Virus record (IMG/VR): IMGVR_UViG_2703718826_000004
Length of the DNA stretch: 25,494 nt
DNA from: a virus
Taxonomy: Duplodnaviria > Heunggongvirae > Uroviricota > Caudoviricetes
Strand: one strand, 5' to 3'
Shown: positions 2,620 through 17,012 of the stretch, piece by piece
How positions within the stretch are numbered: position 1 is the first letter of the stretch
Layout of the letters: the number at the start of each line of letters is the position of its first letter
The notes under the pieces: generated by a model
Database searches by the model: none
What the model saw: the letters and a program-made list of their open reading frames with translations, nothing else
What the model was told of the DNA's origin: nothing
Program-made: the position numbers and the translations under genes

Positions 2620-3210
2620 ATGTCTCGAATTTTTGCTTACTGTCGGATATCAACGCTGGATCAGACCACCGAAAATCAACGCCGGGAAATCGAAAGTGCA
2701 GGTTTTAAAATCAAACCTCAGCAAATAATCGAAGAACACATTAGCGGCTCAGCAGCAACCAGTGAGCGTCCTGGTTTTAACCGGTTGCTTGCTCGCCTGA
2801 AATGTGGTGATCAATTGATTGTGACAAAACTGGATCGCCTTGGTTGTAATGCAATGGATATCAGGAAAACAGTGGAACAACTGACCGAAACAGGTATCAG
2901 AGTGCATTGCTTAGCATTGGGGGGCATTGACCTGACCAGTCCAACAGGAAAAATGATGATGCAAGTAATTTCAGCAGTCGCTGAATTTGAACGAGACCTT
3001 TTACTTGAACGCACTCATTCCGGGATAGTAAGAGCCCGCGGCGCAGGGAAACGTTTTGGTCGACCACCTGTGTTAAATGAAGAACAGAAACAGGCGGTAT
3101 TCGAACGAATTAAGTCAGGTGTAAGTATAAGTGCCATTGCCCGGGAATTCAAAACCTCGCGGCAAACCATTTTAAGAGCCAAAGCAAAACTTCAGACACC
3201 TGACATATAA
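2620..3210 (+). CDS. pinQ: serine recombinase / DNA invertase (Pin/Gin/Hin family)
   Basis: 196-aa ORF starting [15 protein letters not shown], with the catalytic Ser motif and a C-terminal HTH; convergent with tfa/stf as in Qin and Rac. Confidence 0.9.
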
Positions 3211-3307
3211 AAAATAATCTCGGTGTGAGATGCTTTACGTCTTCCAAGCCCCCTTCCTTGCCGTAAATGGAAAGATACATCTAATTATAGAATTTATATG
3301 TTTTACC

Positions 3308-14850: not shown

Positions 14851-15603
14851 TTATCTCGTCACCTTCCTCAATTGCGCTTCCGCGTATGCTTCTTCCTGCC
14901 AGCACTTTGTTACCAGTTTACCAATGACGTCCGCATACCCCTTATACCACTGATAATCGGTCAGGTCTGGTACCAGCTTCTGGACATGACGTCGTGCCAG
15001 CGTGGTCGGTAAACGACTAAACCGGTTTCCATTACAACGCCCACAAATCTTATATACCGGTACGCCATGAAACCGGGTTCTTTTTTCATCCAGAACAATC
15101 CCTTTACCCTTACACCCTCTGCACGCTGTGCTGGCTTCGCCCTTACCATGGCAATGCTGACATAGTTCCTTCACCCATTCTTCCTTGATTACAGATTCCC
15201 CGCGTCTGTAGTGTTTCACCACTTCGCGCAATACATTATAAAATCCCGTACCTGAACAATGCTCACAGCGAGCCTTACTTGCCGCAGACCTGGAGTAATC
15301 AGCAAAGGCAAAACTCACGAGGTAAGGAATAATCTGTAACCGGATTTCTTCACTCAATTTGTTCAATGTCGGGTTATCCAGTGCCATCGCGTAATTTAGC
15401 AGGCCTTCAATCGCAAACTGAGGGTCCTGAACACCAACTTTTGCCAGAAATAAGGCCAACCCAAGTGGTGCTTTCGACTGCACCATCCCCTGCGCTGCCA
15501 TTACATCCGTAATTGTTAAACAACCGGTGCCTGTCGCTGGAGCGTCATCGCTCAATTTTGGAGATTTTGGGGAGTAATATTTTGGTAAGGCTTCAAGGTT
15601 CAT
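14851..15603 (-). CDS. quuQ: late-gene antiterminator Q (phage 82/21 type)
   Basis: ORF 14851..15633; the internal start MNLEALPKYY is preceded by GGAGAA, giving 250 aa. Cys/His zinc-binding cluster (CEHCSGTG ... CQHCHGKG ... CRGCKGKG). Confidence 0.9.
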   Translation of the reverse strand: MNLEALPKYYSPKSPKLSDDAPATGTGCLTITDVMAAQGMVQSKAPLGLALFLAKVGVQDPQFAIEGLLNYAMALDNPTLNKLSEEIRLQIIPYLVSFAFADYSRSAASKARCEHCSGTGFYNVLREVVKHYRRGESVIKEEWVKELCQHCHGKGEASTACRGCKGKGIVLDEKRTRFHGVPVYKICGRCNGNRFSRLPTTLARRHVQKLVPDLTDYQWYKGYADVIGKLVTKCWQEEAYAEAQLRKVTR

Positions 15604-15616
15604 GCTCGTTCTCCAC

Positions 15617-16666
15617 TTACGCCAGTACGCCAATTGCCAGCGCGCGATCGATAAAACGAAATATCAGCTCCAGTTGGGAGCCATACTTATCTTCAAATGC
15701 CACTGTATCCGTATGCAGCTCGTTGTGATGCTTTCTGCACAAAGGCAACACAAAGAGATCATGTGCTTTTGTTCCCATTCCGCCCTGCCCGTGACCAATC
15801 AGATGATGCGGATCGTCGGCTGGCATACCGCAGCAAGCACACGGCTGTGTCTTAACCCAACGTGTGTATTTCTCCTTAACCCAGCGGCGACGTTTAGGCA
15901 GCTTCATGAAAGATTCCGGAGACTCTGGATCAACGGTGATGCTTACCACCGTCTTTTCCTGTGGTGATTTTTGTTGCTGGTGGGCGTAAGGCAACGGTGC
16001 AAGATTTTTTGTGCGTTGTTTCAATATGCTGGTGGCGGTCTGCTCTCCCGGTACGATGTCGCTTTCGCGGTACACCGAGCAGATTTTTTCCGCTGGTAAT
16101 CCCAGCGAACGACGCGATACAGCCTCAGGTAGTGCATCCACCACCTGATTGCAGACCGCCCACCAGGATAATTCAGCCAAAGATAATTCCCGCTCCTGCG
16201 TACCGCTTATTGCGTGACGGATGACGTCAATCACCCATGCTGTCAGATTTTGTTGAGCAAGCAGCTCCAGTGATTCCGATGTCTGGTCACGCAGTTGGTT
16301 GTCGCAGTGCCAGCACAACACCATTGCGCCGGTACCATAACGGTGAATGACTGTTTCAGTGTGATGGTAATCGCCATTAGGCCACTGGCAGGATGTAACA
16401 TGACGTAATAGCCAGTCGGACAATGCGCCAACGCCGCCAGCAGCACGAATCACCCGTTCGTTACTAAAAAACGGCAGCAATGTTTTGTCTTCCGCCAGCG
16501 GCTGGCGAACGGCAGGAACGACTCCGGATGGCAGATTACGCATGCTTTTTGGTTCCGGTTCCACCAGCACTCGAGGATTATGAAATATCTGTATGGATTC
16601 ACGGCCCGGCTTAAGGACCACCAGCCCAAGCTCAGGCACCAGAACAGGTCTAAGTAATACCCGCAC
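15617..16666 (-). CDS. ydfU: DUF968-type prophage protein with a C-terminal HNH-like zinc-finger nuclease motif
   Basis: ORF 15617..16705; the GTG at 16664-16666 is preceded by GGAGGT 3 nt upstream, giving 349 aa. C-terminal motif CACCGMPADDPHHLIGHG ... AHDLFVLPLCRKHHNELH. Confidence 0.8.
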   Translation of the reverse strand: MRVLLRPVLVPELGLVVLKPGRESIQIFHNPRVLVEPEPKSMRNLPSGVVPAVRQPLAEDKTLLPFFSNERVIRAAGGVGALSDWLLRHVTSCQWPNGDYHHTETVIHRYGTGAMVLCWHCDNQLRDQTSESLELLAQQNLTAWVIDVIRHAISGTQERELSLAELSWWAVCNQVVDALPEAVSRRSLGLPAEKICSVYRESDIVPGEQTATSILKQRTKNLAPLPYAHQQQKSPQEKTVVSITVDPESPESFMKLPKRRRWVKEKYTRWVKTQPCACCGMPADDPHHLIGHGQGGMGTKAHDLFVLPLCRKHHNELHTDTVAFEDKYGSQLELIFRFIDRALAIGVLA

Positions 16667-16667
16667 G

Positions 16668-16946
16668 TTACCTCCAGATCCGTTGCTGGAAAGTGCGGGA
16701 CGCACGTGGTGGGCGTTCGGAATAAGGCAGCCTGACAGAGATTATCCAGTGCCGATAGTCGAGACTGAGAGCTTTCTTAACCTCGAACCCGCGCCTGCGG
16801 TAAGAATGAATCAGCCATTCGGCCTGTTCTGCAGTGCATGGAGGGTGCTGGAACCATTCAGACTTGAATGCGTGAGAATACCGCCCGTGCGTGCAGGCAA
16901 GAACGGGCGAATTATCAGAATTGTAATATTTTGCGTTGCGTGCCAT
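16668..16946 (-). CDS. hypothetical protein (92 aa) translationally coupled to ydfU
   Basis: ATG preceded by GGAGAA; its TAA stop lies inside the ydfU Shine-Dalgarno/start (GGAGGTAACGTG). Confidence 0.5.
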   Translation of the reverse strand: MARNAKYYNSDNSPVLACTHGRYSHAFKSEWFQHPPCTAEQAEWLIHSYRRRGFEVKKALSLDYRHWIISVRLPYSERPPRASRTFQQRIWR

Positions 16947-17012
16947 CGGTTTTCTCCGGTGGCACGGTGTTACTCAGCGGGAGTTCAGCCCCGCGCAAGA
17001 TTGTAGATGAGT

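Follow-up and report, generated by a model that had tools for sequence, protein, structure and literature searches.

The ydfU locus of the Qin prophage

The DNA analysed here (IMG/VR record IMGVR_UViG_2703718826_000004; 25,494 nucleotides (nt), hereafter the window) is the Qin cryptic prophage and shows 100% identity to Escherichia coli K-12 strains (C600, J53 and ER1709). On its minus strand, which carries all features of the window described below, lie in order relB, relE, hokD, rem (17264–17013), an open reading frame (ORF) encoding 92 amino acids (16946–16668), ydfU (16666–15617) and quuQ/ydfT (15603–14851). The subject of this study is ydfU with the small ORF that precedes it, which are two separate genes of the lambdoid recombination (‘nin’) cluster and not one gene: ydfU is predicted to encode a two-domain HNH nuclease, and the small ORF encodes a conserved protein of a family of its own. 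The pair follows the ordinary lambdoid organization; what is modestly new is that the 92-residue ORF is missing from the MG1655 annotation, and that its uncharacterised family is met again and again at the head of the nuclease block in temperate phages, joined to it by a common type of junction.

The small gene (16668–16946), taken from the ORF list, is annotated as a hypothetical protein (WP_012304870.1) by the Prokaryotic Genome Annotation Pipeline (PGAP), which recognizes it in other K-12 strains. The MG1655 reference annotation (NC_000913.3) lists nothing between ydfU (b1560) and rem (b1561), and the gene, at about 1644306–1644584 of that record, has no b-number. On the other side of ydfU, and separated from it by 13 nt, is the antiterminator Q gene quuQ/ydfT (14851–15603), identified by its annotation and by a match to Pfam Antiterm (4e-54); an earlier reading of the window, made without database searches (the sequence-only reading), had correctly placed the pair upstream of Q.

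YdfU carries a C-terminal HNH finger

The ydfU coding sequence (15617–16666, stop codon included; 349 amino acids), given by both the ORF list and PGAP, opens with a GTG codon at 16666–16664, and the PGAP annotation, the phrog_96 profile and the alignments of homologues all begin at that position, with a conserved MRxLL N terminus from residue 1 onward. A longer 362-residue frame, which starts at a GTG at 16705 and would overlap the small ORF, lacks conservation among relatives.

As judged by its sequence and predicted fold, the C-terminal 100-residue part of YdfU is an intact, zinc-stabilized His-Me (HNH) nuclease finger of the DUF968/YbcO group. The sequence-only reading had seen an HNH-like motif at this end of the protein, and the motif, CACCG..DDPHHLIGHG..PLCRKHHNELH, was confirmed. 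Pfam DUF968 (PF06147) matches residues 160–346 with 256.6 bits, against a cut-off of 27.8 (E = 1.5e-76), and the phrog_96 ‘HNH endonuclease’ profile matches at 4e-171; the Pfam models HNHc_6 and RecA_dep_nuc gave sub-threshold matches, and NCBIfam gave none for either YdfU or the 92-residue protein. The core of the finger, residues 276–318 (15713–15841), consists of a CxxC pair, an HH pair and a C-x2-(C/H)-H-x3-H element. Among 39 homologues at 35–90% identity, C276, C279, H287, H288, C310, H314 and H318 are invariant, and position 313 is Cys in 26 and His in 13, the K-12 protein having His. Both Cys pairs for the structural zinc characteristic of DUF968 are therefore represented (C276, C279 and C310 being invariant and 313 alternating between Cys and His), as are the catalytic His on strand 1 and the metal-ligand His/Asn position on the helix. 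The histidines of the motif, H287, H288, H314 and H318, on whose conservation the earlier assignment depended, line up with the H and H..D of YbcO.

The AlphaFold model of YdfU, with a mean predicted local distance difference test (pLDDT) score of 77.6, shows a β-β-α unit followed by helices in the C-terminal part, matching the ββα-metal fold of His-Me finger/HNH nucleases, and its nearest structural neighbours are the HNH nucleases Ref of phage P1 and YbcO. Profile comparison by hhalign pairs YdfU with YbcO-type proteins at probabilities of 90–93%, and a profile search against PDB sequences retrieved YbcO (3g27) at E = 0.0025. The HNH motif of DUF968 was pointed out earlier by Curtis et al. 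2014 (PMC4118853), and YdfU and YbcO have been placed in group 7 of the His-Me finger proteins with a proposed role in recombination (Jablonska et al. 2017, PMC5714182); the HNH assignment of YdfU is already published and is not new in kind.

The N-terminal domain and linker of YdfU

The finger is preceded by an N-terminal domain, residues 1–190 (16097–16666), which is covered by phrog_11007 and modelled with a pLDDT of about 90 at residues 60–150, and by a linker, residues 191–250 (15917–16096), which is modelled with low confidence (pLDDT 38–62), shows many insertions and deletions when homologues are aligned and appears disordered from about residue 194 to 250 in the AlphaFold model. No Pfam model matches residues 1–159, and the fold search with YdfU found nothing beyond HNH matches, leaving the N-terminal domain without a fold relative. 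A fusion of an Orf/NinB domain to an HNH domain has been reported for Gram-positive DUF968 proteins (PMC4118853); an Orf/NinB-like N-terminal domain was not detectable in YdfU by Pfam or fold searches.

Column counts and the alignment define one conserved segment within this domain, comprising C93, H101, C118, C or H at 121 and D122-N123 (residues 93–126; 16289–16390), around which the model places strands at residues 105–118 and a helix at 119–125. C93 and C118 are invariant, H101 is replaced by Cys in the Vibrio and P1 homologues, and Cys and His interchange at 121, a pattern that mirrors the zinc ligands C276, C279, C310 and C/H313 of the C-terminal finger. The segment could possibly form a structural zinc site on a hairpin–helix unit, and it may be a degenerate, non-catalytic second finger; the alignment by hhalign of the N-terminal domain with YdfU’s own C-terminal domain is collinear and not significant (probability 3%, E = 0.014), and that with YbcO gave no signal. 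To the eye the segment is like both YbcO and the C-terminal finger (SCQWP..DYHH..LCWHCDNQL), and a second HNH finger is not claimed for it.

Homologues of YdfU and related nucleases

Full-length homologues of YdfU occur in phages of Salmonella, Klebsiella, Citrobacter, Yersinia, Edwardsiella and Vibrio. Phage P1 PdcB, whose function is unknown and which is dispensable (PMC10695390, PMC10067587), is also a full-length homologue, with 26% identity over 91% of the length and both domains, although several of its finger His residues are replaced. The P1 pdcB gene (locus L013, 2405–3448) is immediately followed by lpa, the gene of the late-gene activator, a placement that parallels that of ydfU before Q. 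The gene before it, pdcA, was considered as a counterpart of the small gene and rejected: PdcA has no HMM match and is not a phrog_1212 member.

The closest known nucleases differ from YdfU in architecture. YbcO of the DLP12 prophage (PF07102/DUF1364; PDB 3G27) is a single domain of 96 residues, whereas YdfU has an additional 190-residue N-terminal domain and 60-residue linker and matches DUF968 and not the YbcO model. The RecA-dependent HNH nuclease Ref of P1 (PF16786; PDB 3PLW) is a structural neighbour only: YdfU scores 17.6 bits against the Pfam RecA_dep_nuc model, under its cut-off of 26.9, and the N terminus of Ref is basic and disordered whereas that of YdfU is a folded domain. Lambda Rap (NinG; PF05766), a structure-specific His-Me finger endonuclease, occupies the genomic slot of ydfU just upstream of Q, but its domain architecture is different and YdfU has no NinG match in Pfam.

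In Salmonella phage ST64B (locus L012, 2483–3437), the YdfU homologue is annotated as two overlapping coding sequences, sb47 and sb48, labelled ‘HNH endonuclease’ and ‘DUF968’; this frameshift split lies inside the ydfU homologue and not between ydfU and the small ORF. Three other homologues (P0121, P0127 and P0227; 393–526 residues) contain internal tandem duplications of 45–180 residues, which may reflect either genuine rearrangement or faulty assembly.

The upstream ORF encodes a conserved small protein

The ORF upstream of ydfU is a genuine gene for a small basic protein of the uncharacterised phrog_1212 family. A database search with the 92-residue protein returned 129 homologues, all from Escherichia or Shigella, at 58–100% identity; those of full length are 63–100% identical and mostly 90–92 residues long, and the gene is present in thousands of E. 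coli genomes. Their alignment divides the protein into variable residues 1–26 and a conserved core of 66 residues, 27–92 (16671–16868), and this core corresponds to the whole of the phrog_1212 model, positions 1–66 of the profile matching residues 27–92 at E = 1.7e-35. A profile search of 1.8 billion representative proteins found only 75 members of phrog_1212 type, mostly free-standing proteins of 66 residues. The ratio of nonsynonymous to synonymous substitution rates (dN/dS) among three diverged copies is 0.10–0.18 in the core, 0.6–1.6 in the N terminus and 0.26–0.37 overall; the core is under purifying selection. The conservation of the ORF, which the sequence-only reading had left to be settled from homologues, is thereby established.

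AlphaFold (AF2) predicts for the core a compact β-α-β-β arrangement with a C-terminal helix (pLDDT of about 87), in which only F32, Y49, D63, L73, P74 and W91 are conserved across the phrog_1212 family; the tail of the core shows a conserved LP..PR..QQRxW pattern. The N-terminal 26 residues (16869–16946) form an Escherichia-specific extension that holds the Cys and His residues; it is variable, has a pLDDT below 50 at residues 1–23, and is probably a poorly constrained, disordered addition in the Escherichia form. The sequence-only reading had drawn attention to a Cys/His-rich N terminus, and those residues are indeed present, but the variability, relaxed dN/dS and predicted disorder of the region do not fit a metal motif. 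A zinc finger in the 92-residue protein was rejected for want of a conserved set of four Cys/His ligands: C19, H21 and H25 are already variable among Escherichia sequences, and in the wider family M, L, V or I takes the place of C37.

Proteins of the family are basic (median isoelectric point (pI) 9.5). Fold and sequence searches with the small protein gave no informative relative, and in Pfam it matches none of the NinE, NinF, NinX and NinH families. The genes for those proteins resemble the small gene in being short, tightly packed nin-region genes between the replication genes and Q, their functions are unknown or poorly known, and NinF and NinX adjoin the small gene in some phages; the 92-residue protein differs from all four in belonging to its own family, phrog_1212.

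The sequence-only reading had also allowed that the two ORFs might be one ancestral gene of about 440 residues split by a frameshift, and a fused ORF was looked for in relatives. One fusion protein of 438 residues (P0122) exists among the database matches of YdfU. It is represented by one sequence from one contig, where the small gene has lost its last three codons, its stop codon and the spacer in frame. Because it arose by a small in-frame deletion on one contig, the fusion represents a rare deletion and not the ancestral form. Thousands of copies have two ORFs with the same junction, so that the fused state is neither common nor ancestral; the small domain stands free as a 66-residue protein before unrelated genes; and YdfU homologues that lack the small domain start at the same Met. 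A split gene therefore has practically no probability left to it, and the small ORF is taken as independent.

The junction between the two genes

The small ORF and ydfU meet in the sequence GGAGG-TAA-C-GTG (16664–16675), in which the last codons of the small ORF constitute the Shine–Dalgarno (SD) sequence of ydfU, and the TAA stop codon (16670–16668) is followed by a single base and then by the GTG start. The small ORF has a ribosome-binding site of its own, GGAG at 16954–16957, read from the sequence 7 nt before its ATG. Both elements agree with the sequence-only reading, which had described a stop codon within the SD/GTG region of ydfU and proposed translational coupling. The geometry expected of coupling, a start within a few nucleotides of the upstream stop and an SD sequence inside the upstream ORF, is found at ydfU and recurs across the small-protein family, and on this geometry translation of ydfU may be coupled to that of the small ORF.

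The junction is stereotyped within the family, consisting of TGG followed by GGG, GAG or AGG, a TGA or TAA stop, 1–2 nt and an ATG or GTG start in 53 of 56 members. The last codon is GGG, GAG or AGG when the next gene is coupled and ACA or CGC when it is uncoupled, and the Trp codon is always kept. Because the purine-rich last codon occurs only at coupled junctions and Trp is retained regardless, the final residue appears to be determined by the ribosome-binding site of the next gene, and the Trp by requirements of the protein itself. At the K-12 junction a weak local hairpin (16660–16699), in which the SD sequence and GUG start are paired with the end of the small ORF, is predicted in both the minimum-free-energy and the centroid structures, with a paired probability of 0.89 compared with 0.72 ± 0.11 in controls.

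Scans for promoters and terminators around the pair gave background levels. The terminator upstream of ydfU has been reported to be among the strongest Rho-dependent terminators in E. coli (PMC9160355), and in rho mutants ydfU is derepressed and rem barely changed (supplement to PMC9160355). Since ydfU responds and rem hardly does, termination would fall across the unannotated 92-residue ORF (about 16667–17012), which suggests that the ORF is poorly translated in uninduced K-12.

Small-gene homologues precede six families of nuclease

The genomic context of the phrog_1212 family was examined at 63 loci encoding 56 distinct small proteins, drawn from Escherichia contigs, named phages, one scan of species-representative genomes and viral contigs; two single-seed scans of viral contigs yielded no loci. 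For 53 of these small proteins, the start of the following gene lies −8 to +2 nt from the stop codon of the small gene, and this following gene always encodes a DNA nuclease: NinG/Rap (18), RusA (21, in two clades), YbcO (8), DUF968/YdfU (3), an Rv2179c-like 3'-5' exonuclease (2) or an RNase_T/DnaQ-like exonuclease (1, gp41 of N15). The downstream nucleases thus span six families, including two of DEDD exonucleases. The typical upstream neighbours of the small gene are the recombination mediators NinB, DUF1367, YbcN and RdgC.

Direct adjacency to a nuclease gene is seen in 6 of 9 diverse named phages. The small gene stands immediately before YbcO in mEp237 and phiES15, before NinG in GF-2 and SPN3UB and before an exonuclease in N15, and in Chris1 it is followed by RusA and then YdfU. 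The layout is kept where the cluster sits downstream of a Q-like gene (N15, PY54 and contig L061); in phages like N15 and PY54 it is found beyond Q, with RdgC as a neighbour. The RefSeq record of N15 has no coding sequence for the phrog_1212 homologue (locus L008, about 3013–3219, in the interval from gene 40 to gene 41); this homologue stops 2 nt short of gene 41, the RNase_T/DnaQ-type exonuclease gene, and UniProt lists a longer N15 product of 142 residues, ‘Orf QD1’.

Near-identical small proteins can precede different nucleases. Those of loci L019 and L021 are 97% identical, with RusA after one and a YbcO-type gene after the other, and those of L007 and L028, 88% identical, precede YbcO and NinG, respectively. 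Homologues of YdfU without a nearby small gene are found in Ayreon, ST64B, a Klebsiella phage, YeP2, EPP-1, Vibrio phage Cla and P1. The occurrence of the same small protein before different nucleases, together with YdfU homologues that lack the small gene, argues against a YdfU-specific subunit, inhibitor or antitoxin. The sequence-only reading’s two-gene nuclease module thus survives in part: the small gene does usually stand right before a nuclease, but that nuclease may come from any of six families, and many YdfU homologues do without the small gene.

The same observations bear on the idea that the small protein serves specifically as YdfU’s inhibitor or immunity partner, in a nuclease pair resembling a toxin–antitoxin system. 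Such an arrangement would suit a small gene that lies upstream of, and is coupled to, a nuclease which may be toxic and which Rho keeps silent in K-12 (PMC9160355). Small protein and nuclease, however, neither co-occur nor co-vary as such partners should: 97%-identical small proteins stand before RusA and before YbcO, and the gene is absent beside full-length YdfU homologues, among them those of the Yersinia, Edwardsiella and Vibrio phages. The protein is moreover basic and not an acidic DNA mimic, and a search of defence systems with PADLOC returned no matches for YdfU, the small protein or Rem, for which membership of a defence system was dropped. We regard a dedicated inhibitor as very improbable.

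Other genes near the small gene

In O157-type prophages a ParE/ParD toxin–antitoxin pair (L004–L006, 3303–3865), encoded on the other strand, immediately precedes the small gene. It takes the position held by relBE-hokD-rem in Qin, and this slot seems to collect addiction modules. The record of phage vB_EcoS-813R8 (H69) labels the region matching the small protein ‘toxin to Rem’; no evidence was found for or against the label. Downstream of Q, a Ser/Thr protein kinase and PP2C phosphatase pair is present in related prophages (L002, 6537–8041) and in phiES15 (L009, 4742–6195), and a PemK toxin gene takes that slot in L003.

Weighing the link between small gene and nuclease

The reading we prefer, with a probability of roughly 0.7, is composite: YdfU as a two-domain HNH nuclease, and the small ORF as a separate gene with a leader or accessory role, both belonging to the nin cluster. 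Within it, the small gene is most likely a facultative leader or generic accessory of the phage recombination cluster and not a YdfU-specific partner, and a genuine functional link between small protein and nucleases, as opposed to mere conserved gene order, stands at roughly even odds.

Several observations count against such a link. The set of 56 members is biased, having been gathered with one peptide pattern for genomes and three seeds for viral contigs. In 3 of the 9 named phages other genes stand between the small gene and the nuclease: NinX and one further gene before NinG in Hafnia phage Meifeng, a Dcm methylase and NinF before NinG in Erwinia phage Eho59, and in PY54 ORF48 (unknown) directly after the small gene, the exonuclease lying three genes further along. 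Two viral contigs that are nearly identical to each other (L065 and L066) have a NinF-like ORF and an 83-residue ORF before NinG, and in another viral contig Q comes next, after a gap of 130 nt. Many YdfU homologues at 58% identity or less have no phrog_1212 member nearby. Across 57 family junctions the paired probability is 0.61, equal to the 0.63 of shuffled controls, and a hairpin sequestering SD and start was therefore rejected as a general coupling device, being predicted at the K-12 junction and absent as a family-wide feature. Tight junctions are, finally, general in these operons, most neighbours overlapping or abutting in L002 and mEp237, so that the junction alone is no proof of a functional pair.

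Some of these points lend weight to the view that the small protein is unrelated in function to the nuclease, acting for example on the host or against defence, and that the adjacency reflects only fixed gene order and tight packing in lambdoid and N15-like phages; the general tightness of junctions, the intervening NinX, NinF, Dcm and ORF48 genes, the contig in which Q comes next, the YdfU homologues that often lack the small gene, and the absence of co-variation between small protein and nuclease family all speak for it. Against it, adjacency is kept across six unrelated nuclease families and in three layouts (lambdoids have the pair upstream of Q, N15 has it downstream of Q, and PY54-like contigs have it after RdgC), and recombination breakpoints fall exactly at the stop codon of the small gene, with its SD-bearing end retained before each new nuclease. 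Synteny as the whole explanation is unlikely in our estimate, though well ahead of the inhibitor.

Proposed roles of YdfU and the small protein

On the composite reading, and by analogy with P1 Ref, lambda Rap/NinG, RusA and YbcO, YdfU would most likely nick or cleave recombination or replication intermediates, its uncharacterised N-terminal domain probably selecting the substrate. The terminal codons of the small ORF, for Trp and then Gly, Arg or Glu (TGG followed by GGG, AGG or GAG), double as the Shine–Dalgarno sequence of the next gene, and ribosomes that have completed the small ORF would be well placed to reinitiate at the start of the nuclease gene. For its part, the small basic protein could serve the same pathway as the nuclease that follows, in a manner independent of that nuclease, by binding nucleic acid or a host factor, and the small ORF might, in addition or instead, be a portable translational leader that sets the level of the nuclease.

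A more far-reaching version holds that the phrog_1212 protein is a universal accessory for unrelated phage recombination nucleases (His-Me fingers, RusA resolvases and DEDD exonucleases), made in fixed proportion to them through the junction that places the SD sequence in its last two codons, and acting on a shared substrate or host factor such as branched DNA, RecA or SSB. We put it forward tentatively and rather doubt it in this general form.

Implications

The ‘y-ome’ of E. coli K-12, its set of uncharacterised genes, includes YdfU, and the assignment offered for it, from sequence and structure prediction, is that of a putative Ref/YbcO-like HNH nuclease with an extra domain and with P1 PdcB as a full-length homologue. 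The more useful result is the 92-residue ORF, a conserved protein-coding gene that has been left out of the MG1655 reference, and whose family stands at the beginning of the nuclease block in phages of the lambdoid and N15-like types. Should the small protein indeed work with the nucleases, it would supply a component hitherto missing from phage recombination systems such as Rap and RusA, which up to now have been examined as single proteins; otherwise, the family would provide a clean example of mosaic phage modules exchanged at a shared ribosome-binding junction.

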